64,000 nucleotides of DNA from Candidatus Woesearchaeota archaeon (GTDB lineage: Archaea > Nanobdellota > Nanobdellia > SCGC-AAA011-G17 > PNOQ01): assembly GCA_964474895.1 (NCBI GenBank), contig CAYYUK010000001.1, positions 92,684-156,683 of the forward strand. The letters run 5' to 3'. This document shows positions 22,924 to 59,185 of the stretch, piece after piece. Numbering within the stretch: position 1 is the first letter of the stretch; each line of letters opens with the position of its first letter. The notes beneath the pieces were generated by a model. The model worked only from the letters and a program-made list of their open reading frames with translations, did no database searches and was not told the origin of the DNA. A program made the translations under genes and the position numbers.

Positions 22924-22965
22924 GTAGAACTAATTGCAGATATCTCTTTTAAGGTTTGCTAAATC

Positions 22966-23238: not shown

Positions 23239-23282
23239 AGGGTAGGTTTATGGGATTTATAAACTTTCTTAAATTTAATTAA

Positions 23283-35091: not shown

Positions 35092-37277
35092 TCTTCATAT
35101 ATCTCATTTATTATTCTTTCTATCTCTTCAGCTCTTTTTCCCCCAATTCCTTCTATTTTTTCTAGTTCTTCTTTTTTTGAGTTTGCTATCTTTTTTATTG
35201 ATTTTATTTTGATTAGAAGTGTTTTTGCAGTTTTTGGTCCTATTCCTGGCAGAGATTCTATTATGAATTCTTGTTGTTCTTTTGTTGTGATTGGTTTCCT
35301 CTCTAATCTTAAACCAATTTCTTTACTATTTGGTTTTTGTTCTCTTAGTGAAATTACTTTTATTAATTCTGCAGTGTCTTGTTGATTTTTTGTATAGATT
35401 ATTGGAATTCCAAAAGAGATTGCTATTGTAGATAGCATCCCTCTTATTGCATTTGGATGGATTTTTCTCATTGAATAAATATCTTCAGTTCCCTCCACAA
35501 TTACGATTGGTTTTTCGAAATTTTCTCTTAAACTTTTTATCTGTGAAAATATTCTTTTATCTATTAGTGAATCAACAAAATCCTTCACAGTTTTTCTTTC
35601 AATCCCGACCCTTTCTGAAACCATAAAGTCTGAAGTTGCTAATGCCTTTATTTTGATATTTATTCCTAAATCGTGAAGTTTTTTTGTTATCCCTGAGTTC
35701 GCTTCTCTTGAATCAACGTAGACAATAGATCCAGTTTCTTCTATAAAAGTTTTTAATGTTGGTTGTTTTTCAAGAGTTAATTTTTTATTAATCTCTTGCA
35801 AAGCAGAATACATTCTTTTTTCTTTGTGGTGTGAAACCCAAAAATTTATTTCATCTCTAGTGTTTTTTGTTATTAGTAAAATTATTTTTCCCTTATCATG
35901 TCTTGCAGTTCTGCCCCTCCTTTGGATAGATCTAATTGCAGAAGGTACTGGTTCATAAAAAATTACCAAATCTACTTTTGGTAGGTCCAAACCTTCTTCC
36001 CCAATTGAGGTTGAGATTAGACAATTATATATGCTATTTTCGAAATCTTTTATAATTGAAATTTGTTCTTTTTGATTTAGTTTTATTCCATCTTTTTTTG
36101 CTTGACCTACGAAGAGTTTTGCATTAATGTTTTCAATTTTATTTAGTTCGCCTTCCAATTCTTTTACCGAATCTCTGTAACTGTTGAATATGATTATTTT
36201 TACTGCAGGATCTTTTTTTATACTTTCCTTGACTATTTCTAGAAGTCTTTTTTGTTTTGGGTGTTTTACTTTTTTAAGAGCTAATTCTTTTGTTAAAATA
36301 TATGCTGATTTGAAATTTAAATCATTTGTCAGATTTATTACTGCTTTTGTTTTTGTCTTTGGATCTTCGAAGATAGTTTTTAGATATTTATGTAAAGAAT
36401 TTATTCCCTGAGTTTCTAGCATATCAATTGCATGATTTATTTTTATTGTTTCGGCAACAAGAGAAATCGATCTAAATGTATTATAATCTTTGCTTCCTCT
36501 CGCAATTTCTCCTTGGAGAGAAGCTTGCGCGCCAAGAAGTTCTTTTTTTATTGGTTGTCTTGATAGTTTTATTATTCCCTGTTTTCTTATTTCTGCTATC
36601 TTTTCGGTTAGTGAAGCAACCATCAGTTTTTTTATTTTTTTGAATTCTTCTGGAAGGTCAACCATCTCCTTTTCTATTATTAGTTCTTGGATGTATTCTT
36701 TTACATCAGGATCTTCTTCGGTCCTTGCTTCTATTTTTTTTGAATGTATATTTTTACATACTTCAAGTATTTTTTCTTTGTCTGATCCAGGAGAAGCTGT
36801 TAAACCAATCAATCTTTCAAATTTTGATTTTTTATGATATTCTTTTGCTATCCAGGTGTAAGAATAATCTTGCACTGCTCGATGTGCTTCATCTATTATT
36901 AATGTAGACACTTCTTTGAAGTCTATTGATTTATTTAGTAAATCATTTTCTATACACTGTGGTGTACTTACTATGATGCTTGAATTCTTCCACAATTCTT
37001 TTCTTTTGCTTGGCGGCACAGCCCCTGTAAAAAGAGTTACGTATTTTTCATCTGTGCTTTCTTTTATTTCATTATATATTTGGTTTGCAAGTGGTTTTGT
37101 TGGGGTTAAAAATAATGCTTTAGAATTTTTGTAATTTTCGAATCTTTTTATAATGGCCAATATTGCTATTTTGGTTTTTCCCATCCCTGTTGGTAATACT
37201 ACAAGTGTGTTATCTTTTAAACAAGAATAGAGTATTGTCTCTTGATATAATCGTGGCTTGAATTTAATTGTTGGCAT
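35088..37277 (-). CDS. hef: Hef (helicase-associated endonuclease for fork-structured DNA): SF2 helicase plus ERCC4 nuclease plus HhH2
   Basis: DEAH helicase motifs (VLPTGMGKT, IIDEAH). ERCC4 motif ERVGIERKTVKDF. C-terminal (HhH)2. Confidence 0.88.
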   Translation of the reverse strand: MPTIKFKPRLYQETILYSCLKDNTLVVLPTGMGKTKIAILAIIKRFENYKNSKALFLTPTKPLANQIYNEIKESTDEKYVTLFTGAVPPSKRKELWKNSSIIVSTPQCIENDLLNKSIDFKEVSTLIIDEAHRAVQDYSYTWIAKEYHKKSKFERLIGLTASPGSDKEKILEVCKNIHSKKIEARTEEDPDVKEYIQELIIEKEMVDLPEEFKKIKKLMVASLTEKIAEIRKQGIIKLSRQPIKKELLGAQASLQGEIARGSKDYNTFRSISLVAETIKINHAIDMLETQGINSLHKYLKTIFEDPKTKTKAVINLTNDLNFKSAYILTKELALKKVKHPKQKRLLEIVKESIKKDPAVKIIIFNSYRDSVKELEGELNKIENINAKLFVGQAKKDGIKLNQKEQISIIKDFENSIYNCLISTSIGEEGLDLPKVDLVIFYEPVPSAIRSIQRRGRTARHDKGKIILLITKNTRDEINFWVSHHKEKRMYSALQEINKKLTLEKQPTLKTFIEETGSIVYVDSREANSGITKKLHDLGINIKIKALATSDFMVSERVGIERKTVKDFVDSLIDKRIFSQIKSLRENFEKPIVIVEGTEDIYSMRKIHPNAIRGMLSTIAISFGIPIIYTKNQQDTAELIKVISLREQKPNSKEIGLRLERKPITTKEQQEFIIESLPGIGPKTAKTLLIKIKSIKKIANSKKEELEKIEGIGGKRAEEIERIINEIYED

Positions 37278-38092: not shown

Positions 38093-38213
38093 CTATAGAA
38101 AAATATCTTGTTCAGATTATATAAGTTTTTTGCCCTGATTTTGTTGTTCCTGCGGGTGTGCTGTAGGCTCGAAAGTTATATAAAGTTGGAGAGACTTCTC
38201 TCCGATATCTTAA

Positions 38214-38510
38214 TTGGAGGAATTTACTATGTTGAAAACGAAGAAGATATCTGAAGTTGTTGGTATGCCTGTTTATAATGATTCTGGAGAGTATTTTGGT
38301 GATGTTGAGGAAGCTTTGATAGCTTCAAATAAAGTGTATGGCTGGAAAATTAGGTCTACTAAAAGATCATATATAAGCAAGGTCATGAGCGGTGCCAAGG
38401 GAGTTATAATCCCTCATAAGTTGGTTAAGTCCGTTGGCGATATAATGATAGTTACAAAAGCAGAAGTTCCTAGTTATGAGGAAAAAGGAACAGACGTGGC
38501 TGTCGAATAA
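38214..38510 (+). CDS. PRC-barrel domain protein (first gene of a 4-gene membrane operon)
   Basis: GGAGG RBS 8 nt upstream. MPVYNDSGEYFGDVEEALIASNKVYGWKI matches PRC-barrel. Confidence 0.5.
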   Translation: MEEFTMLKTKKISEVVGMPVYNDSGEYFGDVEEALIASNKVYGWKIRSTKRSYISKVMSGAKGVIIPHKLVKSVGDIMIVTKAEVPSYEEKGTDVAVE

Positions 38511-38553
38511 AAGCACAAATTTTAAATACTCTTATTTCAACTTAGGGATAATA

Positions 38554-39093
38554 ATGGCTTCTAAATTGCAAGGCACCATCGAATTTTTGAAGGATTTCGG
38601 ATTGTTTGATGTTATTCTTCCTTTCTTACTTGTTTTTGCAGTAGTTTTTGCTGTTTTGGAAAAAACGTCAATTCTTGGTAAGGATAAGAAGAATTTGAAT
38701 TCCATTGTTGCATTGGTTTTGGGGTTGCTTACAATTGCAGCCAACAAAGTTATTATGGCGTTGACTAATGCATTGCCAAATATTGTTTTAATGATTATAA
38801 TCTCATTATCTTTCTTACTGATGATTGGCATCTTTTTGAAAGAGGGAGATCTTGACTTGGAAGAAAAACACAGTGGCTGGTATAAAGCGTTTTCTTTTGT
38901 TATGTTAATTGGAGTTATTTTTATCTTTTTGGGTGCGTGGGTTACAGATAGTGGGATAAGTGTTTTATCTTATATTTTTGCATATATGAACTCTAACTTT
39001 GGTGGAGATTTAATTGGAGGCATTGTTTTAATTGCAGTTGTTGTTGGTGTCATTGCAATTGCTGTTAAGGGTAGCAAGTCAGGTGATGATTAA
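38554..39093 (+). CDS. Paralogous multipass membrane protein 1 of 3 (conserved N-terminal LPFL..FAVLEKT.ILG motif)
   Basis: ATG 38554 is preferred over track start 38476. Five TM helices. The stop overlaps the next start. Confidence 0.5.
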   Translation: MASKLQGTIEFLKDFGLFDVILPFLLVFAVVFAVLEKTSILGKDKKNLNSIVALVLGLLTIAANKVIMALTNALPNIVLMIIISLSFLLMIGIFLKEGDLDLEEKHSGWYKAFSFVMLIGVIFIFLGAWVTDSGISVLSYIFAYMNSNFGGDLIGGIVLIAVVVGVIAIAVKGSKSGDD

Positions 39094-39668
39094 TGGCTTT
39101 AGATTTTAGGTCTCTTTTTCTTGAAATGCAGATGTCTGGCTTTTATGAATATGTTTTACCTTTTTTGATTGTGTTTATTGTAATCTTTGCAGTTTTAGAG
39201 AAAACTTATATTCTGGGTTCAGAAAAAGATAAAAATGGAGAAAGAGTTCCACGAACAAATCTTAATGCCCTTCTTGGTGTTATTTTGGGGTTAGTTTTGT
39301 TGTTGCAACCAGATATAAGATTAGTTGAATATATGAACCTTTATTTATCTAAAATGTCGTTCTTTATTGTATTGGCTGTTATGGCGATGCTTGTAATTGC
39401 CCTGTTTGCTGGGAAAGATGAAGATGGTAAAATGTTTTCTGGCTTTGGTATGCTTTTTGCAGTCATAGTTGCTATTGGTGCTGTTTTGTGGTCCTTGAAT
39501 TCCTCATATGGGGGATATGGGTGGACTTCTTTACCCTATTGGGTTACAGATGAGATTCTTAGTCTTATACTCTTTGTTGTGATAGTTGGCGTAATTATAG
39601 CTACAGTTACTAAGAAAGCATCCAAAGAGGGAAGGGGGGAGAAATTTACTCTTAGGAGTGCACACTAA
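39093..39668 (+). CDS. Paralogous multipass membrane protein 2 of 3
   Basis: YEYVLPFLIVFIVIFAVLEKTYILG. taATGg overlap with the upstream gene. Confidence 0.5.
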   Translation: MALDFRSLFLEMQMSGFYEYVLPFLIVFIVIFAVLEKTYILGSEKDKNGERVPRTNLNALLGVILGLVLLLQPDIRLVEYMNLYLSKMSFFIVLAVMAMLVIALFAGKDEDGKMFSGFGMLFAVIVAIGAVLWSLNSSYGGYGWTSLPYWVTDEILSLILFVVIVGVIIATVTKKASKEGRGEKFTLRSAH

Positions 39669-40168
39669 TGGCAACTTTTTTGGATATTGGGTTGCTTGAA
39701 TATTTTTTACCTCTCTTTAGTTTTGTTTTGATTCTTGTTTTGGTTTATGCTATTTTGCAAAAGACCAAGCTATTAGGTGGTAAAGGTTGGATTGATGTTA
39801 CTGTAGCAGTCATAGTTTCTTTAGTTGCCATGTTTTCGGGATCAGTTTTTGATTTTACAAATATAGTGGTTCCTTGGTTTGTCATTCTGATGGTTGCTGT
39901 TGTGATGTTTGGTTTGGTTGCTTCTTTTTCTTTTGGAAGCGATATAGCAGATATACCAATTTTTAAGTCCCTTGCACTTTGGTTACCTTTGATAATTATA
40001 GTTTGGTCTATTACTGTCGTTTTTGGTCCGGTGTTTACTCCTTATTCTCCTGGGGCTAATTCTGAATGGGAAGCAATGAGAACTCTTTTCCATCCACGTG
40101 TTTTAGGGGCAATAGTTATGATTTTGGTTGTACTTTTTACTACAAAAGTTGTTGTCGAGAATACGTAA
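39668..40168 (+). CDS. Paralogous multipass membrane protein 3 of 3
   Basis: LEYFLPLFSFVLILVLVYAILQKTKLLG. The start overlaps the upstream stop. Confidence 0.5.
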   Translation: MATFLDIGLLEYFLPLFSFVLILVLVYAILQKTKLLGGKGWIDVTVAVIVSLVAMFSGSVFDFTNIVVPWFVILMVAVVMFGLVASFSFGSDIADIPIFKSLALWLPLIIIVWSITVVFGPVFTPYSPGANSEWEAMRTLFHPRVLGAIVMILVVLFTTKVVVENT

Positions 40169-40741
40169 TTATTTTATTTTTTGTGTGACTCTTTCCAAAT
40201 CTTTAATATTTTTTGTTAATGGGGCAATTATATTTCCTAATACTTTTTCTAGTGCTTTTATTTCTGCTCCCAGATCCTGTATTCCTTCACCATATTCAGA
40301 AACTTTTCCAAGAACTGCTTTTTGCAAATTTTCAAATCTGTTTTGTACCCTTAAGATTTCTTGCTTTGTTCCTGCAAGATCTGTGTCCATTTTTTCTTTC
40401 CAAAGTTTTAAATCTCCAAATCCTCTTATTAGTTCATCCCATTTTTCTCCAACTATTGATTCAGCAATTTCTTCTATCATATCATAACTTGCTCTTTCTG
40501 GAGAAGGCTCTTGAAAATTTGTATGTTGAATTGGTTGTGACTGTGATTTGAATGTTGGTTTCATGTGTGAAATATCTCTTACAGGAACTTCTCTTTCTTC
40601 TTTTTGTGCAGGAGCTTCTGTTGGAGAAGGGGCATCTTCTAATCCCGGAGGAATTCCTTCGGGTGTTGATCTTTGATGCACTGCGTTTTTAACATCTAGA
40701 ATTTCTCTATTGTTTTCAAAACCCTCTTTTTGTTTTTCCAT
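40169..40741 (-). CDS. Coiled-coil protein with a disordered Pro/Glu-rich N-terminus
   Basis: The C-terminal ~100 aa form heptad-rich coiled coil (EILRVQNRFENLQKAVLGKV...IKALEKVLGN). Confidence 0.45.
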   Translation of the reverse strand: MEKQKEGFENNREILDVKNAVHQRSTPEGIPPGLEDAPSPTEAPAQKEEREVPVRDISHMKPTFKSQSQPIQHTNFQEPSPERASYDMIEEIAESIVGEKWDELIRGFGDLKLWKEKMDTDLAGTKQEILRVQNRFENLQKAVLGKVSEYGEGIQDLGAEIKALEKVLGNIIAPLTKNIKDLERVTQKIK

Positions 40742-40742: not shown

Positions 40743-41102
40743 TTATTTTGTTTGATTTTTCTTTATTAGTTCAATTACGTCATCTTCAGTTACAACGTTT
40801 AATGGATTCCACATATTAATATACTTTTCTAAAATTTTTACCTGTTCTTTTTTTGCAAATAGTTTTAATTCATTTATTATGTCTTTCATAGTATTTTTTA
40901 AAAGTTCAATGCTCTCTTTTACTTCTTTTAAATCTTCGTTTACTGATTTTACTTCGATATTAAGAGACTTGTAATGGTCAACCATATTTTGGTTAATCAT
41001 AAGAATTCTTTCTCTGGTTAAGTTGTATTTTCCTTCAAGAATCCTTATTCTGGTGTTTAGGTCATTTAAATCCGCACCCATATTTTGTTGGACAGTATCC
41101 AT
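40743..41102 (-). CDS. Small coiled-coil protein
   Basis: 119 aa, all-helical heptad pattern. Stop is 1 nt from the downstream gene start. Divergent from the pilus ATPase gene. Confidence 0.45.
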   Translation of the reverse strand: MDTVQQNMGADLNDLNTRIRILEGKYNLTRERILMINQNMVDHYKSLNIEVKSVNEDLKEVKESIELLKNTMKDIINELKLFAKKEQVKILEKYINMWNPLNVVTEDDVIELIKKNQTK

Positions 41103-41183
41103 TTTAAACGAAAGTTATTTTAAGATAGGTAATATATAAGACTATGAATATTAAAGGTTATGTTATTTTTTTAAAGTGGTGAT

Positions 41184-43493
41184 ATGATGGGAACTGGAGA
41201 TAGTTTGAAACCTGGTGAGTACGAGCTTATTAGGGAAGGAAAGCAAGAAGTTATGAAAATTAATTTTATTGGTGTTCCTTATTCTCCATCCATTGAAGAT
41301 GATAAGATTACTATGGCGATGGTTGTTGATCGGCTAATTGAAGTTCCAAGCGTTAGCAGAATAATTCTTTCAGCAGATAGAAACTACCAATATGGTATTG
41401 ATCAGATTCAGATGCTAAGGGAGATTGCTAACATTTATATTTATTTAACAAGACAGAAAGGAGTTCTATCTCTTTCATCTTTGGGTACTAGTATGGAATA
41501 TGCCCAAATGTATCCTTCTAGATTTTCAGATATACAATATATTGTCAACAATCTTTTGAAAGGAGATCCAATAGGTGCTTATGTTGAACTTAAGAGAATA
41601 ATGAGGGAACAAAAAATAAGATTAAAAAATGCTAAAGGTCCCTTTGCGGTCCGAGATGAAACCGCATATTTTAAATCACTGACTGAAATTTTTGAGGTTG
41701 TCAATAAGTCTACTTTGATTTCTCAATTGAAGTCTGAATTGGATGGGCATGTTTTGGGTGATAGATCTATTTATTCTAGATCTTTTAGACCAATGATATC
41801 TCCTAATTTTATGTTTACCAGATTAATGGCAAGAGTTCCTGTAGATTCTGATGAAATAGATAATTATTCATTGAATGATGGATCTCAAATAATGATTTTT
41901 GAGCCTTCAGATGGTGTGAATATATTGTACCATTTAGCTCCTCCGGAATTTAATTTACCCGAAGATCATGTTTGGCTTTTGGATCTTGCAAGGGTTGTTA
42001 TGTCCGAACACAAGCCAACTACTGCAGAATTTACAGATCCTATTAGAATAAGACAAACTTTTCTTAATATTGGTAAAGATCTTCTTAATGAGTTGGCAGC
42101 AAGTAAAGGAATCGCATTAAGCTATGAAGAGTCTGGGAAACTCGCTGAAATTTTAATTAGATATACTATTGGTTTTGGATTGATTGAGGTTTTACTTTCT
42201 GATCCAAAGGTACAAGATATTTCAGTAAATGCTCCGATCGGCGAAGCACCAATTTTTATTGTTCATCAAGATTATGGTGAATGTCTAACAAACATAACAC
42301 CTAGTTCAGACGATGGTGAAAGTTGGGCTACCAAATTTAGGATAATGTCTGGTAGGCCTCTTGACGAAGCTAATCCTGTTTTAGATACTGAACTAGTTCT
42401 TTCTAAATTTAGGGCAAGAGTGTCTATTATTACAAGCCCCCTAAATCCTGTTGGTATTGCTTATGCGTTTAGAAGACATAGAGAGAAACCATGGACATTG
42501 CCTTTATTTATAGATAACAATATGATAAGTTCCCTTGGGGCGGGTTTGTTGAGTTTTTTGATTGATGGTTCTAGAACTCTTTTGATTGCAGGTACAAGAA
42601 GTAGTGGTAAAACTTCTTTATTGGGATCCTGTTTGGTTGAGATAATGAGAAAATATAGAATTATTACTGTTGAAGATACATTAGAACTTCCAGTTAGTTC
42701 TATGAGGGGGCTTGGATATAATATTCAACCAATGAAAGTTAGATCTGCTTTGGCTGCAGGAGGTACAGAGTTACCTGCTGAAGAAGGAATAAGAACAAGT
42801 TTAAGATTGGGGGATAGCAGTTTAATTGTTGGTGAGGTAAGAAGTAAAGAAGCTCTTGCATTATATGAGGCAATGAGGGTTGGTGCTTTGGCTAATGTTG
42901 TTGCAGGCACAATTCACGGTGGTAGCCCTTATTCTGTTTTCGATAGGGTTGTGAATGATTTGGGTGTGCCCAAAACTAGTTTCAAGGCCACAGATATAAT
43001 TGTTGTTGCGAATCCAGTTAAGTCTCCTGATGGACTGCATAAGATTAGAAGAGTTACGAGTATAACTGAAGTTAGGAAGGAATGGGAGAACGATCCTTTG
43101 GCAGAAGGAGCGTTTGTTGATCTCATGGTTTATAATCATAAAACAGATCAGCTTGAACCTACAGATAGTTTAATTAATGGAGATTCTGAAATTATAAAAT
43201 CTATTGCAGGTAGTGTAAAAGAGTGGGCAGGAAATTGGGATGCTGCATGGGAGAATATTTTGTTAAGGGCGAAAATAAAAGAAACCCTAGTCGATGTTGC
43301 TAATAAAATAGAGCGGAAGGATTTGCTAGAGGCAGAATTTTCAACAAAAGCGAATGATGTATTTCATAAGCTTTCGGATGAAGTTTTAACTAACTTTGGC
43401 GTTTTAGACAGCGAGAAAATCTTTTTTAGGTGGAATGAATGGTTTAAGAAAGAGATAAAAAAAGAGGTGCCTAATGTCGATATCGAAAGATGA
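41184..43493 (+). CDS. Type IV pilus/archaellum-family assembly ATPase (FlaI/TadA/VirB11-like) with a long N-terminal extension
   Basis: Walker A AGTRSSGKTS. Walker B and Asp box (TVEDTLEL). His box (GTIHGGS). 769 aa. Confidence 0.8.
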   Translation: MMGTGDSLKPGEYELIREGKQEVMKINFIGVPYSPSIEDDKITMAMVVDRLIEVPSVSRIILSADRNYQYGIDQIQMLREIANIYIYLTRQKGVLSLSSLGTSMEYAQMYPSRFSDIQYIVNNLLKGDPIGAYVELKRIMREQKIRLKNAKGPFAVRDETAYFKSLTEIFEVVNKSTLISQLKSELDGHVLGDRSIYSRSFRPMISPNFMFTRLMARVPVDSDEIDNYSLNDGSQIMIFEPSDGVNILYHLAPPEFNLPEDHVWLLDLARVVMSEHKPTTAEFTDPIRIRQTFLNIGKDLLNELAASKGIALSYEESGKLAEILIRYTIGFGLIEVLLSDPKVQDISVNAPIGEAPIFIVHQDYGECLTNITPSSDDGESWATKFRIMSGRPLDEANPVLDTELVLSKFRARVSIITSPLNPVGIAYAFRRHREKPWTLPLFIDNNMISSLGAGLLSFLIDGSRTLLIAGTRSSGKTSLLGSCLVEIMRKYRIITVEDTLELPVSSMRGLGYNIQPMKVRSALAAGGTELPAEEGIRTSLRLGDSSLIVGEVRSKEALALYEAMRVGALANVVAGTIHGGSPYSVFDRVVNDLGVPKTSFKATDIIVVANPVKSPDGLHKIRRVTSITEVRKEWENDPLAEGAFVDLMVYNHKTDQLEPTDSLINGDSEIIKSIAGSVKEWAGNWDAAWENILLRAKIKETLVDVANKIERKDLLEAEFSTKANDVFHKLSDEVLTNFGVLDSEKIFFRWNEWFKKEIKKEVPNVDIER

Positions 43494-45612
43494 GATAGAT
43501 AAAATATTGAAGAAATATCAATCCAGATTGAATAAACAGATGGGTTCTACTGATGTTAAAAACTATCAGCCTAGCTCTGAATTTTCTAGAGAATATACAA
43601 AATTTAAGGAAGAAGCTATGCCTAAACGTTTGAGTGTATATGAAAAACTGTGTAATTTTTCTGAGACAGTAATAAAGGTTAAACCTTCTGACAAGGATGT
43701 AGGACCTTTGCAGGAAAGCATAAGAATTGCTCATTTGAATTTGACTCCAACTGGTGCAGCCAGTTTTTCTTTGTTGTTTGTTTCGTTAGTTGTTTTATTT
43801 TCTTTGTTTGCTGGAGGAGCGTCTTATTTTGTTTCTGGATTCAAAAGTTTTGGAGGACTTCTTTCTGCAATTATTGTTTCGCTAGTTGCAATTTTGTTAA
43901 TTAAACCAATTACAAGATATCCAATTAATATTGCAACCAAATGGAGATTAAAGGCAAGTGATCAAATGGTTCTATGTGTTTTGTATATGGTAATTTATAT
44001 GAGGCACACTTCTAATTTTGAAAATGCAATTAAATTTGCTTCCGAACATGTTGGAGAACCCCTTTCTTTAGATCTTAGGAAAATATTTTGGGATGTTGAA
44101 ACTGGAAAGTATCCTACCTTGAAAGAGTCTTTGGAAACTTATCTCAAATATTGGAGAAAATACAATCTTGAATTCGTTAATGCCATGCATCTTTTGGAAA
44201 GTAGTTTGTATGAACCAAGCGAAGAAAGGAGATTAAGTTTGCTTGACAAATCCTTGGAAGTTATTCTCGAGGGTACATATGATCGGATGTTGAAATATGC
44301 TCATGATTTGCAGAGTCCAATTACGATGTTGCATATGTTGGGTGTTATTTTGCCTATTTTGGGTTTAGTTATCTTTCCACTTATAGGAACTTTTCTTGGT
44401 GGTGTTAAATGGTATTATCTTGCAATTGTGTATAACATTGCTTTACCGTTGATTGTTTATAATGTTGGAGTTAATCTTTTGAATAAAAGGCCTGCAGGTT
44501 ATGGGGAAACTAAATTAGACATCGCTCCTAAAAAAGGAGTTTTAGCAGTTGCTTGGTTTATTTTCCTTGCATTTTTGATTATTGGATTGTTACCTTTCAT
44601 AATTCATTTTATTTCTCCAGGTTTTGATGTTTCTTTATATGGTGATCCAGCAACTGGGGAGAAACTGTTGGATTTTGAGTTGGCAGGAGATAAATATTAT
44701 GGTCCTTTTGGTATGGGTGCTTTAATATTAAGTTTCTTTATTCCTCTTGGATTAGCTTTGTCTCTTTCGATGTATTACAAATCCAAATCTAAAATTGGAA
44801 AGAAGATTAGAGATGAAACTAAAAGGTTAGAAAGCGAATTTTCAACAGGAATCTTTCAATTAGGAACTAGAATTGGTGATGGTGTGCCATCTGAAGTTGC
44901 TTTTGATGATGTTTCGAAAACATTGGAAGGCACGCCTGTTGGCAAATTTTTTAGAATGGTCCATACTAATTTGAGTACTGCTGGAATGAGTTTAAAGAAT
45001 GCAATTTTCAGTAGGGAAAGGGGAGCAATAAAGGATTATCCAAGCCCATTGGTTAAAAGTTCAATGGAAGTTTTAGTTGAAAGCTCTAGGAAAGGTCCAA
45101 AAGTTGTTTCACAATCTTTGTTGAGTATTTCTACTTATGTAAATAATGTTAAGAGAATAAATGAAAGACTGAAAGATCTTCTTGCCGAGATTATTTCTAG
45201 CATGAAGAGTCAAATTAATTTCATGGCCCCTGTTATTGCGGGTATTGTTGTTGGAATAGCGAGTATGATTGTTGGTATAATTTCTAAATTGGGATATATG
45301 TTACAGCAAGTTAATTCCGGTGGCACTGATTTTTCTGTTGATATTGTTAATCTAAGTAGTTTGTTTCAGAAAACTCAAACAATTCCAAGTTATTTTTTCC
45401 AGTTAATTGTTGGGATTTATATCGTTCAGATAATTTATATTTTGACAATTATTTCGAATGGTATAGAACATGGAGCAGATAAATTAAATGAACAGTATAG
45501 TTTGAGTAAGAATTTAAAGAGGGGCTTTTTGTTGTACTTTGTTATTGCAGTTGTTGTTGTTATTCTCTTTAATATGATTGCAGGATCTGTTTTGAGTTCA
45601 ACTCAAATTTAG
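43474..45612 (+). CDS. FlaJ/TadC-like polytopic membrane platform protein
   Basis: 712 aa. Nine to ten TM helices in two blocks with a cytoplasmic domain, as in FlaJ/PilC. Overlaps the ATPase gene by 20 nt. Confidence 0.75.
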   Translation: MSISKDEIDKILKKYQSRLNKQMGSTDVKNYQPSSEFSREYTKFKEEAMPKRLSVYEKLCNFSETVIKVKPSDKDVGPLQESIRIAHLNLTPTGAASFSLLFVSLVVLFSLFAGGASYFVSGFKSFGGLLSAIIVSLVAILLIKPITRYPINIATKWRLKASDQMVLCVLYMVIYMRHTSNFENAIKFASEHVGEPLSLDLRKIFWDVETGKYPTLKESLETYLKYWRKYNLEFVNAMHLLESSLYEPSEERRLSLLDKSLEVILEGTYDRMLKYAHDLQSPITMLHMLGVILPILGLVIFPLIGTFLGGVKWYYLAIVYNIALPLIVYNVGVNLLNKRPAGYGETKLDIAPKKGVLAVAWFIFLAFLIIGLLPFIIHFISPGFDVSLYGDPATGEKLLDFELAGDKYYGPFGMGALILSFFIPLGLALSLSMYYKSKSKIGKKIRDETKRLESEFSTGIFQLGTRIGDGVPSEVAFDDVSKTLEGTPVGKFFRMVHTNLSTAGMSLKNAIFSRERGAIKDYPSPLVKSSMEVLVESSRKGPKVVSQSLLSISTYVNNVKRINERLKDLLAEIISSMKSQINFMAPVIAGIVVGIASMIVGIISKLGYMLQQVNSGGTDFSVDIVNLSSLFQKTQTIPSYFFQLIVGIYIVQIIYILTIISNGIEHGADKLNEQYSLSKNLKRGFLLYFVIAVVVVILFNMIAGSVLSSTQI

Positions 45613-45648: not shown

Positions 45649-45768
45649 ATGGGAAAGAAAGGTGAGCTAGGTACTTATTTGAAGTATATCTTTATTATAC
45701 TTATAGTGCTTCTGATGATTTATTTGTTTTATAAATCTGTTATGGGGAGGATTGGTAGTTTTGGATAA
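45649..45768 (+). CDS. 39-aa pilin-like peptide (class III signal-like KKGE then hydrophobic helix), below the track cutoff
   Basis: Hand translation gives MGKKGELGTYLKYIFIILIVLLMIYLFYKSVMGRIGSFG. Confidence 0.3.
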   Translation: MGKKGELGTYLKYIFIILIVLLMIYLFYKSVMGRIGSFG

Positions 45769-46573
45769 AAAAGGTTCTACGCTTAAAGTAATTGTATTTG
45801 CGATTATTGCATTAGTTCTGGGGGGGATATTGTATGCTATTGTTGTAAGCTATTTTTCAATAGGTGGAGATAGTGTCGATAGAGAACTGTGCAAAGATAG
45901 TGTTTTGTTACAAGCGAGATCAAAGGTGATCGGTACACCACTTATTGAAGATTTGAGGTGTGGAACAAATGGAATTGAAATAGATGACTTGGATGAGAAT
46001 GAAATTTATTCTGAAATTGCGGGAGAGATGTATGATTGCTGGAAGCAGTTTGGAAAGGGAGATATTGATTTTTTAGATGATCGTGATTGGGGAACTGGAA
46101 ATAATTGGTGCTTTATTTGTTCTAGAATTGATTTTGATGAAAGTGTTCAAGAAAAATATCCTGAAATTGATGGGTTATTTACGTATCTTAAAGATGAGCC
46201 ATTGCCTTTGAAACCCGATGAAACCTTTTTTACTTATATTTATGGAGATGTTTCTGAAGATATAGATCCACAAGAGTTCGATTATCCTTACCCCACTACA
46301 GGGCCCTTTTATGTTGTATTTTTTGGAGATAAGAGGTTTGAAATTTTGGCTTCTGAGTCAAGGGATTTGGTTTCAATAGTTTCTGAGATAGGCGGTTCGA
46401 TTTGGGTAGGGGCGAAAATTGGTTTGAAGTTTGGAAAGGCAGCTGGAGTAAAGGGTGCAATTATTGGGAGTATTGCAGGAGTAGTTCTTCATTATTCTAG
46501 TACGAAAACAGGATATGTTAGTGGATTGTATGTTGGACCTTCTGCTGAAATGATAGAAAGGTGTAGGCAATGA
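45752..46573 (+). CDS. Pilin-like protein (DKKGSTLK then hydrophobic helix). TTG start per the ORF track.
   Basis: N-terminal class III signal-like segment. The remainder is acidic and beta-rich. Confidence 0.45.
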   Translation: MVVLDKKGSTLKVIVFAIIALVLGGILYAIVVSYFSIGGDSVDRELCKDSVLLQARSKVIGTPLIEDLRCGTNGIEIDDLDENEIYSEIAGEMYDCWKQFGKGDIDFLDDRDWGTGNNWCFICSRIDFDESVQEKYPEIDGLFTYLKDEPLPLKPDETFFTYIYGDVSEDIDPQEFDYPYPTTGPFYVVFFGDKRFEILASESRDLVSIVSEIGGSIWVGAKIGLKFGKAAGVKGAIIGSIAGVVLHYSSTKTGYVSGLYVGPSAEMIERCRQ

Positions 46574-46711
46574 AAAGGGGAGAGATTGTTTGGGATAAGT
46601 TAGGGAAGTGGATTTTATTATTAGTACTTTTGATCATTTTATTGATGTTGGCTTATACACAAAAAGAGAATTTCATAAATGCACTTGAGAGTTTGAAAAC
46701 TGCTTTGAGGT

Positions 46712-47335
46712 TTGGAGGCTAAGATGCGAATAGCCATGCCACATATAATTGCAGCAGTTTTAGTAATACTTATTGTGGTAGTTGTTTTATTTTTTACTAC
46801 TCCTGTTTTTAATAAACTTAAAGAGCAGATTGGATTTGGTACTGATTTGAGTGCTGAAGAGACACAGGCACAAATAAAAGCCAGGGAAATCTTTGTTGAT
46901 GGAGTTTATCCTATTTTGGATGATTGTTCAAAAAGTAGGAATGTTAGTTGTTTTTGTACTGATGAAAAGTTTGAATTTCCGACTAGTTACACATTAGATA
47001 TTTATGATGATGGTGGAATGAGGGTCGAACTGATCAATCATTTGGGTGGAAGTGTTGAGGATCGTTTATTATCGGATATTAAGCCTTGTATTGGTTGGAA
47101 AGTTGGTTTTGATTTGTCTGGATTCGGTTATGTTCAGGACGGTAAAGTTACTCTGAGATATAACTATGCTCCTTCTCCTTTGATTGAGTTTTTTGATTTG
47201 GGTGAAGATAAGTTCATAAGTAAACCTTTTGATTTGAGTTACGTTTTCTATAAGCCACGGGAAGGGCATATTTGTGTTTTGACGGAAGAATATGCTTCAG
47301 CTAAGAGGGTTGTTGGTGGGGGTATCTGTGAGTAG
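46712..47335 (+). CDS. Pilin-like or pilus-associated protein
   Basis: N-terminal hydrophobic helix (IIAAVLVILIVVVVLFF). Cys-containing extracellular domain. Confidence 0.4.
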   Translation: MEAKMRIAMPHIIAAVLVILIVVVVLFFTTPVFNKLKEQIGFGTDLSAEETQAQIKAREIFVDGVYPILDDCSKSRNVSCFCTDEKFEFPTSYTLDIYDDGGMRVELINHLGGSVEDRLLSDIKPCIGWKVGFDLSGFGYVQDGKVTLRYNYAPSPLIEFFDLGEDKFISKPFDLSYVFYKPREGHICVLTEEYASAKRVVGGGICE

Positions 47336-47390
47336 TAATCAAAAGATTTAAATAATAAGAATTAAGATTATCAAATAGAGGTGAAGATAT

Positions 47391-47774
47391 TTGAAAAATA
47401 AGAAAGGTCAAACGCTTTCAATTAATACTGTCATTATTACTATTCTTGCTATTTTTGTTTTAGTTCTGATTGTTGTTGCACTTACAGGGGGATTTGGTAA
47501 TTTTGTCGATTGGTGGAACAATGTTTTTACTGGTAGCGGAATAGATAGTCAGAAAGCAGCCTTGCAATGTAATGGGTTCTGTGAGTCTTATCAAACAACA
47601 GGGAGTGTCCAATTTGCTGAGAATTATTGTACCAAAGAGTTCAATATTGATAGTGACGGCGATAATAAAGGAGATATTACTTTGATTTGCCCCGATATAG
47701 TCACTGTTTCGTGTTCAGTCATTGATGACTATGAATCTGATGTAGGCGAGATTGGCTGTGAAGCTTTCTCTTAG
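47391..47774 (+). CDS. Type IV pilin (class III signal peptide)
   Basis: MKNKKGQ then TLSINTVIITILAIFVLVLIVVALTGG. Confidence 0.6.
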   Translation: MKNKKGQTLSINTVIITILAIFVLVLIVVALTGGFGNFVDWWNNVFTGSGIDSQKAALQCNGFCESYQTTGSVQFAENYCTKEFNIDSDGDNKGDITLICPDIVTVSCSVIDDYESDVGEIGCEAFS

Positions 47775-47777
47775 AAA

Positions 47778-47963
47778 ATGCTTGGTAAGAAAGGACAGGG
47801 ATTATCAATAGAAACAATTATCATTTTAGTGATTGCTGTCCTTGTTTTGGTTGCTGTTATTTTAATCTTTAGTGGGCAGGCTGGTGAAATCTTCCAATCT
47901 GTTCAGGATTTTATTTCTGGAATAACTACACCAACTGTTGATGTTTCGGAGGCAGTGCAATGA
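47778..47963 (+). CDS. Short type IV pilin (61 aa)
   Basis: MLGKKGQ then GLSIETIIILVIAVLVLVAVILIFSG. Confidence 0.55.
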   Translation: MLGKKGQGLSIETIIILVIAVLVLVAVILIFSGQAGEIFQSVQDFISGITTPTVDVSEAVQ

Positions 47964-48472
47964 ACAAAAAAGGTGAGTTAGCTTTTATGATTAAGATTGC
48001 TATTGGTTTAACTATAGGTATAGTTTTGATTCTTTTTAGTATGACTTTTTGGAAGGTTATTGTTGGACTTCTTTTCCCAGAGATGTCTGTTTTAACGGAG
48101 AACACAATGGAGGAGCTATCTGAAGCAATAATTAGATTAGAGGGTGGAGATAATACCACCGTTCTTTTTTATATGTCTGGTGATTTTGTTTTAGTTGCAT
48201 TTGATAAGAGTAAATCTTTTGGTTCGGGGAGTTTGGGTTATTATGAGAGACCAGTATCTTGTTTTGACTCTTCCTGTTTGGTTGTTTGCAGAGATTCTGA
48301 TTCTGGAAGCGCATGTAAGAATTCTGATCTTTTATATTTGTTTGAATTTGATAACTTTGATTTAGAAAATCCTGATACTGGAATTATTTCAGTTGTTAAG
48401 GGAAAATATGTTGAATTTTATGTTGAGAAAAAAAGTAATTCTGTTACAATTAGGGAAACTAATGAAAACTAA
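47960..48472 (+). CDS. Type IV pilin-like protein
   Basis: MNKKGE then LAFMIKIAIGLTIGIVLILF. Start overlaps the upstream stop. Confidence 0.55.
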   Translation: MNKKGELAFMIKIAIGLTIGIVLILFSMTFWKVIVGLLFPEMSVLTENTMEELSEAIIRLEGGDNTTVLFYMSGDFVLVAFDKSKSFGSGSLGYYERPVSCFDSSCLVVCRDSDSGSACKNSDLLYLFEFDNFDLENPDTGIISVVKGKYVEFYVEKKSNSVTIRETNEN

Positions 48473-48499
48473 TTTAAATAAGGAAATTAATTTTTTAGT

Positions 48500-48889
48500 A
48501 TGGTTTCTAAAGTAGGAATTTGGATAGGATATACTGTCGTAGCTGTTGCGGCTTTTTTAACTGTCTTTGTTATTATGGATAAAATGACGGATGATACCTC
48601 TTTTGAGCAAAGATTTATTTCTAAAGACTTGATTATACTAGAGGACAGTGCCCTCTCCGCCCCATATAATTTAAATGTCGCATATTCTTTTGATGATTCT
48701 TATGAAGTTTTTTTCGGGGAGAAATGTTCTTTGACGATTAACAAAAGAGAAACTCCTCTGTATTCAGGTAGCATTAACTATTGTGCTGCAGATATTAATT
48801 TTGAAGTCATATATTCAGATATATTAGATTCCGGGTTAGTAATTTTTGATAAAAAAGAGAATGTTTTTGAGGTGAAAGTTAGTGAATAA
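48500..48889 (+). CDS. Pilin-like protein
   Basis: MVSKVG then IWIGYTVVAVAAFLTVFVIM. Confidence 0.4.
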   Translation: MVSKVGIWIGYTVVAVAAFLTVFVIMDKMTDDTSFEQRFISKDLIILEDSALSAPYNLNVAYSFDDSYEVFFGEKCSLTINKRETPLYSGSINYCAADINFEVIYSDILDSGLVIFDKKENVFEVKVSE

Positions 48890-49382
48890 AAAGGGTGACT
48901 ATACTATTGGCAAAGAATCTCTAAAGATGATAGTCTATCTTATGCTGATTACAGTTGTTAGTTTTATTATAATCTCCATTTTTGGGGTTTCGATTGTAAA
49001 AGACATTAGAACTAGTGAACTAGAACAGCATGTCGCAGTTACAAGAATGTTATCTTCTAGCAATTGTTTAGCATATTCTGGAGAAGAAAGAGTGTTTTCT
49101 GGAATTATAGATTTGAATAAATTTAGCGAAGAACGTGTACAGAACTGTTTTAGTTACAAAGAGAGAGAGGGACAAGGACTACTGCTTAGTCTGTATGATT
49201 TTAATGATAATCTGTTAGGAGAAGTTGAAACCAATAAGATACTCGTTGCGCAAGTTCCAACTTGTGGTTTGGATAAATCTGATTATGATTGTTATTTTAC
49301 TAGGAAGTATATTCTTTATGACGATGGTGGAGAAATGAAAAAGGGTTTTTTGGATTTTACGGTGGTGACCAAACTTGAATAA
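48882..49382 (+). CDS. Type IV pilin-like protein
   Basis: MNKKGDYTIGKESLK then MIVYLMLITVVSFIIISIFG. Confidence 0.5.
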   Translation: MNKKGDYTIGKESLKMIVYLMLITVVSFIIISIFGVSIVKDIRTSELEQHVAVTRMLSSSNCLAYSGEERVFSGIIDLNKFSEERVQNCFSYKEREGQGLLLSLYDFNDNLLGEVETNKILVAQVPTCGLDKSDYDCYFTRKYILYDDGGEMKKGFLDFTVVTKLE

Positions 49383-49860
49383 GAATGGAATAATAGTTCT
49401 AGCTGATATCAACTTTATTATTCTTACCGTTTTACTTTTAGTTGCTTATATAATCTTGCTGGTTCAGTTTGATATTGCAAATTTTGGTGATAAGAATCAA
49501 ATAATTGAGTTAGATGATGGTTTGAAATCTTCCGAAAATGAGTATCTTGTTTTAAATTACCTAAATACAGAAGTTAATGAGTTTACGTTTGCAGATATGA
49601 TTTATTCTTGGAAAAATGGTGGTTCTGTTGTGTGGTCAGAGATTGAGTCTGAAACCGAAATCTTATTTTCAAAAGTTTATGGGAACTGTTATGAGTTTGA
49701 AATAGACGGGAATAATATAAATGCTGTAATTTTTAATAGTGACTCTGCTAGTTGTATTGATTTTTCTGTTGATTTGAATGAAGTTGTTGAAATTTGTATT
49801 GATATTAGCGAATATGATAATAAATTTGAAAATTACAAAGAGGAGGAATGCTTTGTATGA
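49375..49860 (+). CDS. Type IV pilin-like protein
   Basis: MNKNG then IIVLADINFIILTVLLLVAYIILLV. Confidence 0.5.
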   Translation: MNKNGIIVLADINFIILTVLLLVAYIILLVQFDIANFGDKNQIIELDDGLKSSENEYLVLNYLNTEVNEFTFADMIYSWKNGGSVVWSEIESETEILFSKVYGNCYEFEIDGNNINAVIFNSDSASCIDFSVDLNEVVEICIDISEYDNKFENYKEEECFV

Positions 49861-50576
49861 ATAGAAAAGGTGTTTTAAGTGCATATGTATTTGTTTTTAC
49901 ATTTATGGCCATAGGTCTTGCTCTGTTTTTGATAACACAGATAGGGGATGATGTTGTTAATGCTTTAGGCAGATCACAGTCTGAATTATTGGATACTTAT
50001 GTTGGTGCTGAAGTTGATTTGTTTAACGATGGGAGATTGATAGAATATGTTTGGAAGGATTCTCTGATTGGGTTGGGAAAAACTGGTGGGGTTGATACTA
50101 GTTCTATTGGGGAATATAGCTATTGGAAAAGAGGGGGTGAAAGTTGTTTTCCCGATTTAGAAGAATTAGAGAGTAAGTTGGCTGAAATTATTGTTTTGAA
50201 AACTGAAGGAGATTATGTTTTGGATGTGGATAGTTCTAATGTTGTAATTACATATGATAAAGAGTATGTGGGTGGTGCCGATAATACCAGTTTTACTTAT
50301 TATTTTAATCCAGTTGTTGAAATTGGGTTTGATTATGATTTGAATGAGTTTTTGGATGCTATACAAACTGTTGAAATCATTGTTTCTGAATGCGGAGATG
50401 ATATTGCCTGTTGGGATACTAAGGATGTATCATATTCAGTGGATGATAATAATGTTTTTAAGGTAGATGTTGTTTCTGGAATCGTTAAAGATATTCTTGG
50501 GGAAGAAGTGGTGATTGTTAAGGGGGCTATAGATTTTGACTATAATCCTCTTCAAGATGGTGAATTCGAATGTTGA
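49848..50576 (+). CDS. Pilin-like protein
   Basis: MNRKG then VLSAYVFVFTFMAIGLALFLI. Acidic extracellular domain. Confidence 0.45.
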   Translation: MLCMNRKGVLSAYVFVFTFMAIGLALFLITQIGDDVVNALGRSQSELLDTYVGAEVDLFNDGRLIEYVWKDSLIGLGKTGGVDTSSIGEYSYWKRGGESCFPDLEELESKLAEIIVLKTEGDYVLDVDSSNVVITYDKEYVGGADNTSFTYYFNPVVEIGFDYDLNEFLDAIQTVEIIVSECGDDIACWDTKDVSYSVDDNNVFKVDVVSGIVKDILGEEVVIVKGAIDFDYNPLQDGEFEC

Positions 50577-51553
50577 AATTTAGTTATGATGAAATCCTTA
50601 GGAAGATAATGGAGAACACTGAGCTTTCTAAAGAGAAGATTGAAGAAAAAATAAATGATAAGATAAAACAACTTTCTGATTTGGTTAGTAAGGAAGGTGC
50701 TGCACATATAATTGCTAATCAACTTGGTGTTAAATTATTTGAAAATCTTGGTGAAAGAGTTATTAAAATTAAGGAAATTCCGAAAGGTTCAACTTCTGTA
50801 AATGTTTTGGCCAAAGTTGTAAATATTTATGGCATTAATAAATTTACTAGAAATGATAAGGAGAGCAGAGTTGCAAATCTAATGATTGCTGACGAAACTG
50901 GTCCTGTTCGTTTGGTTATGTGGGAAGATCATCTGATTGATATGCTTGATAGGGATGAAATTGCAGAAGGAGATATACTCAGAGTTAAAAATAGTTATTC
51001 TAGGGAAAATAGAGGATATACAGAATTGCATCTTGGTGCCAGATCTGAAATTGAAGTTAATCCAGAGGGCGAGAAAATTGGTGAAGTTAATATGAGTATT
51101 AAATCTGAACCAATGACTGTTAGTAGGAAAGATGTTGCAGATTTGCAAGATGGTGAAAGTGCAGAAGTTTTTGGTACTGTTGTTCAAGTTTTTGATCCTA
51201 GATTTTATAATGCTTGTCCTGAATGTAATAGAAAACCAGAGATGGATGATAATGAGTTTAAATGTTCTGAACACGGTGTTGTAAGTGTTAGGAGGGTTCC
51301 TATTTTGAATTTCTTTTTTGATGATGGTACTGGAAATGTTCGTACTGTTTGTTTTTCTGAACAAGCTAATCAGTTAGCTGGGAAAGAATTAACTGAGGAA
51401 GTGGATTTTGAAGCAGTTAAGGATGACTTGTTGGGTAAGCAGTTAATTTTAATAGGGAGGGCTGTCAAGAATAAAATGTTTGGTCGTACTGAATTTATAG
51501 TTCGATCTGTTAAGGAGGCAAACCCTGTTGAATTAGTGCAAAATGATGTTTAA
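50570..51553 (+). CDS. rpa: Replication protein A (ssDNA-binding OB folds plus zinc ribbon)
   Basis: N-terminal RPA-type segment (EGAAHIIANQLGVKL). Two OB folds. CPECNRK...CSEHG zinc ribbon. Confidence 0.8.
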   Translation: MLKFSYDEILRKIMENTELSKEKIEEKINDKIKQLSDLVSKEGAAHIIANQLGVKLFENLGERVIKIKEIPKGSTSVNVLAKVVNIYGINKFTRNDKESRVANLMIADETGPVRLVMWEDHLIDMLDRDEIAEGDILRVKNSYSRENRGYTELHLGARSEIEVNPEGEKIGEVNMSIKSEPMTVSRKDVADLQDGESAEVFGTVVQVFDPRFYNACPECNRKPEMDDNEFKCSEHGVVSVRRVPILNFFFDDGTGNVRTVCFSEQANQLAGKELTEEVDFEAVKDDLLGKQLILIGRAVKNKMFGRTEFIVRSVKEANPVELVQNDV

Positions 51554-54260: not shown

Positions 54261-54539
54261 ATGGGAAATGCAGTTGTAACTATGAAGATAATGCCTGATA
54301 ATCCTGAAGTGGATTTAATCAAAGTGGAAGAAGAAGCTAAGAAGATTATATCTGGTTTTGTTGGTGAAGGCGAAATGAAAGTTTCTCAAGAACCAGTTGC
54401 TTTTGGTCTGAAAGCTTTAGATATTATTTTTGTTATGGATGAAAATTCTGGTAGCCCAGATCCTATTGCTGAAAAAGTTTCTGAATTGGATGGTGTTAAT
54501 TCTGCAGAGATTTCAGATGTTAGAAGAGCAATTGGTTAG
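54261..54539 (+). CDS. ef1b: Translation elongation factor aEF-1 beta
   Basis: 92 aa. VTMKIMPDNPEVDL...EPVAFGLKAL pattern of archaeal EF1B. Confidence 0.85.
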   Translation: MGNAVVTMKIMPDNPEVDLIKVEEEAKKIISGFVGEGEMKVSQEPVAFGLKALDIIFVMDENSGSPDPIAEKVSELDGVNSAEISDVRRAIG

Positions 54540-55408
54540 ATAAATAATAAGAAAATATTTCCATAAATTAAACTTATAATTGTTGCTATTAAAAATACAG
54601 GTATGAAAACTATACCTTCTTTTACTACTACTTCTTTTTTATGTTTCTTTATTATTTCAATTTGTTTATTAGTTACTCCTGTGCTTTTTGGTGAGTAAAT
54701 TGTTTTTCCATCTATTATTATCTTTTTTGTAATCCAATCTCCTTCCCTAAGGTTACTTGTTTGCATTTTTTTATACATAGATGTTTTTTCTATTGCCTTT
54801 GTTATTGTTAGTAAATAGTTTGTAATTAATGGAATTGCAAATATTGTTGAAAAGATTATGCGTAGCTCTAGTTCTTTCACTGCAATAAAACTTATTAGTA
54901 TTCCAACTAATAGGAGAATTAGTAAAACTTTGTTTAATTGTTTCTTTTTTTGCTTTATTTTTTTGAATTCCTTTGAGAAAGAATTTCTGTGTTTTATTAT
55001 GAGAAAAACTGTCCAAAACAATCCATAGACTGAACCAACTATTATCAAATTTATTAGAATTGTAACTGGAAGATTTATTGTTAATTCTGAATTGAAAAAG
55101 TTTCTTAGTAATGATGGATAAACTGGTAGGATTGCCCCAATTCCAATTAATAGTTTTGCATCCCCCCCGCCCCATTGTTTTGTGTAATACATTATGTTTC
55201 CAATAATCAGGAAAATTCCAACATAAAGTAGGCTGTGAAGTATTGGCCAATAACTTTGTTCTAAAATTGATTTTGTTGCGAATATTGCCAAACCAATCGC
55301 AATTAAGCTGAAGTTTAACCAGTCTGGAACTTCTTTTGTTTTTATGTCTGAGATTGTTGCTGCTGTTAACCAAATTAGCACAACCCCAATAAGAATCCAG
55401 TCTATCAT
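54536..55408 (-). CDS. Type IV prepilin peptidase (PibD/FlaK-like A24 aspartyl protease) with an extra C-terminal membrane domain
   Basis: Two catalytic Asp motifs: ISDIKTKEVPDW and WGGGDAKLLIGIG. Polytopic membrane protein. The 54771..55373 track ORF is an overlapping spurious frame. Confidence 0.7.
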   Translation of the reverse strand: MIDWILIGVVLIWLTAATISDIKTKEVPDWLNFSLIAIGLAIFATKSILEQSYWPILHSLLYVGIFLIIGNIMYYTKQWGGGDAKLLIGIGAILPVYPSLLRNFFNSELTINLPVTILINLIIVGSVYGLFWTVFLIIKHRNSFSKEFKKIKQKKKQLNKVLLILLLVGILISFIAVKELELRIIFSTIFAIPLITNYLLTITKAIEKTSMYKKMQTSNLREGDWITKKIIIDGKTIYSPKSTGVTNKQIEIIKKHKKEVVVKEGIVFIPVFLIATIISLIYGNIFLLFI

Positions 55409-59184: not shown

Positions 59185-59185
59185 A

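Follow-up and report, generated by a model that had tools for sequence, protein, structure and literature searches.

A conserved trio of paralogous membrane proteins encoded beside type IV filament genes in Woesearchaeota

Within a 64,000-nucleotide stretch of a Candidatus Woesearchaeota archaeon genome (contig CAYYUK010000001.1 of assembly GCA_964474895.1; hereafter the window), three tandem genes encode paralogous membrane proteins, here named A, B and C and together called the trio. They are followed by the genes for two coiled-coil proteins, CC1 and CC2, and then by those for a secretion ATPase and the rest of a filament locus. With moderate confidence, we regard A, B and C as distinct subunits of one integral-membrane complex that forms an accessory component of a type IV filament machine specific to Woesearchaeota. 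The locus as a whole probably encodes a type IV filament system in which three unannotated families make up a new conserved accessory module.

Woesearchaeota are abundant, uncultured archaea with small genomes and are thought to depend on other cells. The type IV filament systems of archaea consist of a core of ATPase, platform, pilins and peptidase, to which lineage-specific accessory proteins are added. Filament genes of Woesearchaeota were among their most highly expressed genes in a metatranscriptome, and the filaments may enhance cell-to-cell contact (PMC11606122).

Three paralogous membrane proteins in fixed order

An initial annotation of the window had proposed a PRC-barrel gene followed by three paralogous genes on the same strand, with overlapping or abutting ends. 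All four open reading frames (ORFs) are present on the + strand; the identity of the first was established by its match to PF05239, and BLASTP comparison of the other three (9e-12 for A–B, 1e-5 for A–C and 4e-6 for B–C) identifies them, at the level of sequence, as true paralogues. The A/B and B/C junctions are 1-nt TAATG overlaps (ttaATGg, 39091–39096, and ctaATGg, 39666–39671). The PRC-barrel gene and A are 43 nt apart and do not overlap. The start of A was placed at ATG 38554 (MASKLQ...) rather than at the longest-ORF start, 38476, on the basis of the N-termini found across the family. A shadow ORF (38532–38831, − strand) lies opposite the trio, and at one related locus, L086, the public gene call at 4290–4841 (−) is an antisense ORF over the real third paralogue at 4336–4860 (+).

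The multipass character of the three proteins was borne out, and the earlier count of four to five transmembrane (TM) helices can be sharpened to five hydrophobic segments in every copy. The shared N-terminal motif that had been noticed in the three proteins holds across 129 relatives, in which P23 and G42 are invariant and G16, L22, F24, L26, F28, L35, K37 and N58 are at least 90% conserved. An acidic residue in TM1, three positions after the near-invariant Gly16, is present in most members and is not invariant. The small Gly-rich helix described after the motif corresponds to TM2.

An AlphaFold2 (AF2) model of B, built from the 129-sequence alignment, had a mean predicted local distance difference test score (pLDDT) of 82, rising above 92 for residues 1–70. 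It contains an N-terminal helix (5–14), TM1 (17–38), a beta-hairpin (43–53), TM2 (55–71), TM3 (77–105), TM4 (118–138) and TM5 (153–174), and the trio proteins as a group have hardly any extramembrane mass. Counts of Lys plus Arg placed loop 1, loop 3 and the C-terminal tail inside and the N-terminal tail, loop 2 and loop 4 outside in all three subfamilies, with a bias of the same sense in each (11.1 vs 2.8, 6.7 vs 0.9 and 4.0 vs 1.0). Five membrane crossings are predicted for each subunit, from an outer N-terminus to an inner C-terminus. From the common charge pattern, therefore, the subunits would lie parallel to one another with the conserved hairpin in the cytoplasm. The most conserved element of the family, consisting of TM1 with its invariant Pro, the LEKT end, the Lys-rich hairpin loop and the start of TM2, is predicted to form a cytoplasmic face; the three C-terminal helices are poorly conserved. 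Antiparallel dual-topology pairs, as in EmrE or DUF606, were considered and rejected because the charge bias is the same, and not opposite, among the tandem paralogues.

A word-indexed search with B returned 15 relatives, of which the named ones came from Woesearchaeota or Nanoarchaeota and the closest were 84% and 82% identical. An exhaustive profile search gave far more, with 3,066 cluster representatives (50% identity) at E ≤ 1e-3 and 1,679 at E ≤ 1e-10. Of the 150 family matches listed, almost all were 170–200 residues long.

The initial annotation recognised neither a known transporter nor a pilus component in the trio, and this held in every comparison made. A scan of A, B and C against Pfam and NCBIfam gave no family, transporters and channels included, above its curated cut-off, and the best 120 of 571 relatives were all called "hypothetical (membrane) protein" by their sources or carried just a gene-call string. 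A PDB sequence profile search with the family returned zero matches, and comparison of the AF2 model with solved folds gave no convincing or significant structural match. The trio is unrelated to the platform-like protein of its own locus (hhalign probability 0.3%) and shows no relation to PF00482, and PF01478, the A24 prepilin peptidase family, had no match in A, B, C or the 129 relatives, in which a conserved GxGD is also absent.

Scans of the 129 relatives, and then of four selected ones, against curated families gave scattered weak matches to unrelated membrane families, including Acyl_transf_3, DUF2070 and TMEM127, none of them common to more than 15 members. The single match above cut-off was to TMEM127 in one relative (27.0 bits vs 25.3, residues 121–178 only). 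It could be argued from the sub-threshold matches of 15 of the 129 members to Acyl_transf_3 (PF01757) that the trio proteins belong, in truncated form, to a known family of membrane enzymes. The two of these that were inspected align to profile positions 128–261, which is only the central part of a 326-position, ten-TM profile, and their scores of 25.7 and 27.6 bits fall short of the cut-off, 31; most members have no match at all. Many unrelated membrane families match equally well, which points to hydrophobic composition rather than homology, and descent from such an enzyme family is scarcely credible. None of these weak hydrophobic matches was accepted as evidence of homology.

A scan of one genome per GTDB species located 352 coding stretches of the family, and 80 of these loci were analysed. 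Nearly all have titles that name Woesearchaeota, Nanoarchaeota or Nanoarchaeia or that seem to be mislabelled. Many of the records (loci L007, L016, L018, L020, L024 and others) are third-party annotation entries for metagenome-assembled genomes titled "uncultured Methanosarcinales archaeon"; as the locus otherwise appears only in Woesearchaeota-type records, these titles are probably wrong.

When 76 triplets, including that of the window, were compared, the nearest relative of each protein in another genome was at the corresponding position in 227 of 228 comparisons. Identity averaged 51, 44 and 30% within the three positions and 21–30% between them. This position-specific orthology implies that the triplication predates the divergence of these genomes and that the order has been fixed since. 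Scores against hidden Markov models of the subfamilies agreed for A (156 for subfamily 1, 98 for subfamily 2 and 56 for subfamily 3) and for C (105 for subfamily 3 vs 27 and 21), and left the assignment of B ambiguous (92 for subfamily 1 vs 81 for subfamily 2). The three proteins would assemble physically as an A–B–C hetero-oligomer, a proposal strengthened by the orthology of each position and by the common predicted topology of the copies.

One predicted protein of 365 residues (P0016) is an in-frame fusion of a subfamily 1 unit and a subfamily 2 unit in the usual gene order, and it may be a read-through or assembly artefact. It was not relied on as "Rosetta stone" evidence, being a single case and topologically awkward for two units that each have the N-terminus outside and the C-terminus inside.

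Conserved neighbourhood and filament genes

In nearly every GTDB locus with enough flanking sequence the genes run trio(+), CC1(−), CC2(−), ATPase(+), platform(+). Where 1.5 kb or more of downstream sequence is available, CC1 comes after the trio in 57 of 65 loci; where 5 kb or more is available, the ATPase does so in 35 of 48. The reverse direction was examined by a metagenome scan from an ATPase alignment (A7), which gave 49 loci with at least 3.5 kb upstream. Trio genes were found in 38 of these, exactly three of them in 35, and CC1 in 43. The commonest pattern (20 loci) was that of the window itself: PRC, trio, CC1, CC2, ATPase, platform.

The genes of the window that lie upstream of the PRC-barrel gene served as a control. 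Among the 80 GTDB loci those for Hef, a 253-residue membrane protein and an M64-like peptidase recur in 0–1, against 75–80 for the trio genes, 63 for CC1, 55 for CC2, 39 for the ATPase and 31 for the platform-like protein, the last two counts being limited by flank length. The functional coupling to the adjacent pilus locus that the initial annotation had thought possible is supported by a gene order conserved in both directions, next to upstream genes that are not conserved. Failure to find the arrangement in related genomes would have told against a real system; it is conserved in about 80 species-level genomes as well as in the metagenome loci.

The two coiled-coil genes, which the initial annotation had omitted, are the tightest partners of the trio. 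In most genomes CC1 consists of an N-terminal three-helix domain, a linker rich in Pro, Gln and Gly, and a coiled-coil domain of ~110 residues; the CC1 of the window lacks the three-helix domain (~45 residues, consensus PVD.V..MR.QGLSNNQI.Q.LQR.GY). In a minority of members this domain gave weak matches to DUF7626, UBA-like and HTH families. Searches of CC1 and CC2 against Pfam and PDB returned no specific family, only generic coiled-coil matches, and no relation between the two was detectable (hhalign probability 7.6%). Most of the best 120 CC1 relatives listed are unnamed and most of the remainder are "hypothetical protein". The stop codon of CC1 abuts that of C (40166–40168) back to back, with zero intergenic bases (40166–40171), so that the two convergent transcripts must either overlap or terminate within the adjacent gene. 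On the other side of the coiled-coil pair, the gap between CC2 and the ATPase gene is ~50–120 bp in many related loci.

The PRC-barrel protein matches PF05239 with E = 3.3e-8 (33.9 bits vs a cut-off of 21.2), its residues 11–81 aligning to profile positions 5–72 of 78. Its start is most likely ATG 38229 and not TTG 38214, since a GGAGG (38216–38220) lies 8 nt upstream and the orthologues are 92–95 residues long. The gene is almost missing from the lineage sampled in the GTDB set, which suggested that it was confined to close relatives; this was rejected, since 21 of the 49 metagenome loci carry it directly upstream of the trio on the same strand. The gap between the PRC-barrel gene and the trio is at most 82 nt in 21 of 22 cases. 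The PRC-barrel gene is a conserved operon member in the sub-lineage of the window only.

Downstream of CC2 the window contains what appears to be a complete filament gene set: ATPase, platform-like protein, class-III-type pilins and A24 peptidase. The ATPase matches PF00437 with 54.2 bits (cut-off 24.9), placing it in the T2SSE/FlaI type, and its identity across loci is 50–58%. Its best PDB matches, to 2oap (4.8e-25), CpaF and FlaI, cover only residues ~300–640, so that it extends beyond solved FlaI and GspE by ~300 residues at the N-terminus and 130 at the C-terminus. The 712-residue protein encoded next is probably the platform, a role that fits its position and polytopic nature. No PDB match was found for it; 6 of 19 orthologues match PF00482 at E ≤ 1, the best with 0.0016.

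Five of the small genes that follow have the N-terminus M..[KR][KN]G and then a hydrophobic stretch, and as many as 16 of 29 loci have relatives of the pilin-like genes following the platform gene. The peptidase gene lies ~9 kb downstream of the platform gene. The features are collected in Table 1.

These pilins bear on the possibility that A, B and C are themselves unusual pilins or pseudopilins, cleaved by the prepilin peptidase after Gly16. The near-invariant Gly, the long hydrophobic helix that follows it and the acidic residue three positions on recall such a signal, yet no basic residue precedes Gly16, where the pilins of the locus have [KR][KN]G. The leader of ~15 residues is of mixed charge, and the protein continues with four more TM helices and without a globular domain. 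On leader and topology the trio proteins do not belong with the pilins; this reading was rejected and is very improbable.

Table 1 Features of the trio locus and the filament genes (positions in the window)
Feature	Position	Strand	Description
TATA-like box ttatataaag	38177..38186	+	~43 nt upstream of the PRC-barrel start codon; resembles the consensus
PRC-barrel gene	38229..38510	+	93 aa, stand-alone; heads operon in the window's sub-lineage
Paralogue 1 (A)	38554..39093	+	179 aa, predicted five TM helices; orthologue of subfamily 1
Paralogue 2 (B)	39093..39668	+	191 aa, predicted five TM helices and cytoplasmic beta-hairpin; divergent middle-position member
Paralogue 3 (C)	39668..40168	+	166 aa, predicted five TM helices; orthologue of subfamily 3
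CC1	40169..40741	-	Soluble coiled-coil protein; conserved C-terminal domain of ~110 aa (alignment A5)
CC2	40743..41102	-	Soluble coiled-coil protein; C-terminal Y..W.P.NFVT motif (alignment A6); divergent from ATPase
Intergenic region CC2/ATPase	41103..41183	.	81 bp, AT-rich; presumed shared promoter
FlaI/GspE/CpaF-type secretion ATPase	41184..43493	+	769 aa; long N- and C-terminal extensions
Platform-like polytopic membrane protein	43474..45612	+	712 aa; FlaJ/TadC position; start overlaps ATPase end
Eight small genes	45752..50576	+	Five with class III signal-peptide-like N-terminus
Prepilin (class III signal) peptidase	54536..55408	-	PF01478 Peptidase_A24, 58.3 bits vs 26.5

The last pilin-like gene and a gene for an RPA-like OB-fold protein (Rep_fac-A_C; 50570–51553, +) share 7 nt where the former ends. 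In 10 of 29 metagenome loci, relatives of the RPA-like gene are found after the platform and pilin genes. RadA (52338–53297, +) and Hef (35088–37277, −) are encoded nearby. This proximity may link the filament to DNA handling or uptake.

Possible roles of the trio and comparison with known systems

The link between the trio, the coiled-coil pair and the filament genes is drawn from the conservation of gene order in both directions at 20–50% protein identity, the unconserved upstream flank and the compact CC2/ATPase promoter region. In the mechanism proposed, the trio would be a hetero-oligomeric membrane anchor whose conserved cytoplasmic face docks CC1 and CC2. These in turn would contact the extra N- or C-terminal domains of the long FlaI-type ATPase, and the trio would thereby anchor or scaffold the ATPase/platform core in the membrane. 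The PRC-barrel protein may have been added as a further cytoplasmic adaptor in the sub-lineage of the window. Such contact of the trio with CC1, CC2 or the ATPase, and with it the scaffold role, is what we infer from the neighbourhood. A 2026 preprint (10.64898/2026.04.22.720090) proposes that such ATPase extensions are docking sites for subsystem-specific accessory proteins.

Several points weigh against an accessory role in the filament machine. The case is one of gene neighbourhood only, with the mechanism deduced from it, and no similarity of the trio to known pilus or archaellum accessory proteins was found. There is no ATPase within 5–9 kb in 13 of 48 loci; at L039 the trio is followed by housekeeping genes (aminoacyl-tRNA genes), and at L059 housekeeping genes follow the trio, CC1 and CC2. 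Conversely, 11 of 49 ATPase loci have no trio upstream. The trio, the coiled-coil pair and the ATPase operon are each transcribed as a unit of their own. The predicted TM-score (pTM) of the AF2 monomer is 0.54, and the platform-like protein of the window matches T2SSF (PF00482) weakly (E = 0.36, 11.2 bits vs a cut-off of 25.2).

The main rival explanation is that the trio, CC1 and CC2, with the PRC-barrel protein in some lineages, form a separate membrane–cytoskeleton module that acts in division, shape or envelope organisation and owes its place next to the pilus genes to nothing more than shared regulation or an inherited gene order. The tightest link at the locus, that between the trio and CC1, would fit such a module, as it persists without a nearby ATPase at L059. 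So would the layout of CC1, with its small N-terminal helical domain, low-complexity linker and coiled coil, which is frequent in cytoskeletal adaptors. Archaeal PRC-barrel proteins are also known to act in division (10.1101/2023.03.28.534520). However, CC1 stands beside the ATPase in the great majority of the ATPase-anchored loci (43 of 49), including those from which the trio is absent, and CC2 and the ATPase have a short divergent intergenic region in common. Moreover, no similarity to CdvA, SepF or FtsZ, and no such neighbour, was seen at the locus, and the PRC-barrel gene occurs in one sub-lineage only. A separate module of this kind is rather unlikely.

It is also conceivable that the trio is a hetero-oligomeric channel or transporter, either an ion path that drives the machine or a conduit through which DNA or nutrients are taken up together with the filament. 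Three parallel five-TM subunits, each with an invariant Pro and mostly an acidic residue in TM1, would suit a channel, and the RPA-like gene for a single-stranded DNA-binding protein that is fused into the pilin operon (10 of 29 loci), with RadA and Hef nearby, would suit a conduit for DNA. Yet no transporter or channel family or fold was matched, the acidic residue is not invariant, and poor conservation of the three C-terminal helices would be unusual for a pore. Apart from FlaI there is neither an ATPase nor a substrate-binding partner. We consider a channel or transporter quite improbable.

A more far-reaching form of the accessory reading is that the trio, CC1 and CC2 constitute an unknown membrane-embedded core component, a stator-like anchor or a conduit, that defines a DPANN (Woesearchaeales)-specific class of filament, possibly for attaching to a host or taking up DNA. 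Recurrence of the RPA-like gene in the pilin operon hints at the latter function, and we put the whole reading forward as a doubtful prospect. If it were true, archaeal filament machines would not always be the minimal set of ATPase, platform, pilin and peptidase.

Among known systems, the role proposed for the trio as an accessory to the filament machine is comparable to that of ArlX and of ArlC/D/E (a cytoplasmic scaffold) and ArlF/ArlG (a membrane-anchored stator) in the archaellum. In both cases the accessory proteins are encoded beside a FlaI-type ATPase and a FlaJ-type platform, are lineage-specific in make-up and include soluble or anchored coiled-coil proteins with membrane-anchored partners. 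The architecture differs: ArlF and ArlG are single-pass and pilin-like and ArlX is single-pass, whereas the trio consists of three paralogous five-TM proteins. No sequence or fold similarity between the archaellum accessories and the trio was detected, and neither Pfam scans nor the gene tables of this block contain a FlaH/ArlH.

The predicted role is the same as that of PilM/N/O in type IVa pili and of GspL/M/C in type II secretion. Those proteins lie in the membrane around the platform, which they couple to the ATPase, and some form paralogous pairs. They are bitopic with periplasmic ferredoxin-like domains, in contrast to the polytopic trio, which matched none of their Pfam families at cut-off. 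TadB/TadC and EpdJ/EpdK are, like the trio, paralogous polytopic membrane proteins encoded beside a CpaF/FlaI-type ATPase; they have T2SSF domains, to which the trio is not related.

There is also a resemblance to CdpB1–3 and CdvA, in that the operon begins, in the lineage of the window, with the gene for a small stand-alone PRC-barrel protein, and coiled-coil partners are encoded nearby. CdpB1–3 are binding partners of SepF, and in CdvA a coiled coil is fused to the PRC barrel (10.1101/2023.03.28.534520). The trio loci differ in having no adjacent SepF, FtsZ or ESCRT genes, and the PRC-barrel gene is absent from most of them; CC1 and CC2 gave no match to CdvA in Pfam.

Two censuses of archaeal type IV filament systems (PMC4858521 and the preprint 10.64898/2026.04.22.720090) contain no mention of the trio/CC block in the sections consulted or under keyword search of their text, and keyword searches of the available literature found no description of it. 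The five-gene block of three membrane paralogues and two coiled-coil proteins offers a target for structure prediction, electron cryotomography and heterologous reconstitution. Its three families, which together comprise thousands of unnamed protein clusters, could be curated to serve as markers of the subsystem.

Other regions of the window

Four consecutive + strand genes at 55852–60100 encode proteins of 393, 394, 307 and 304 residues with N-terminal hydrophobic segments, two of them lipoprotein-like; none of the four had a Pfam match, and BLASTP detected no similarity among them.

At the other end of the window, the genes for Orc1/Cdc6 and the small and large subunits of PolD stand in a row (22924–30438). 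A search for origin-recognition repeats in 22900–23980 gave nothing convincing. A replication origin in the 1-kb gap that precedes cdc6 is suggested by GC skew and gene strand bias, both of which change sign near 23–24 kb.

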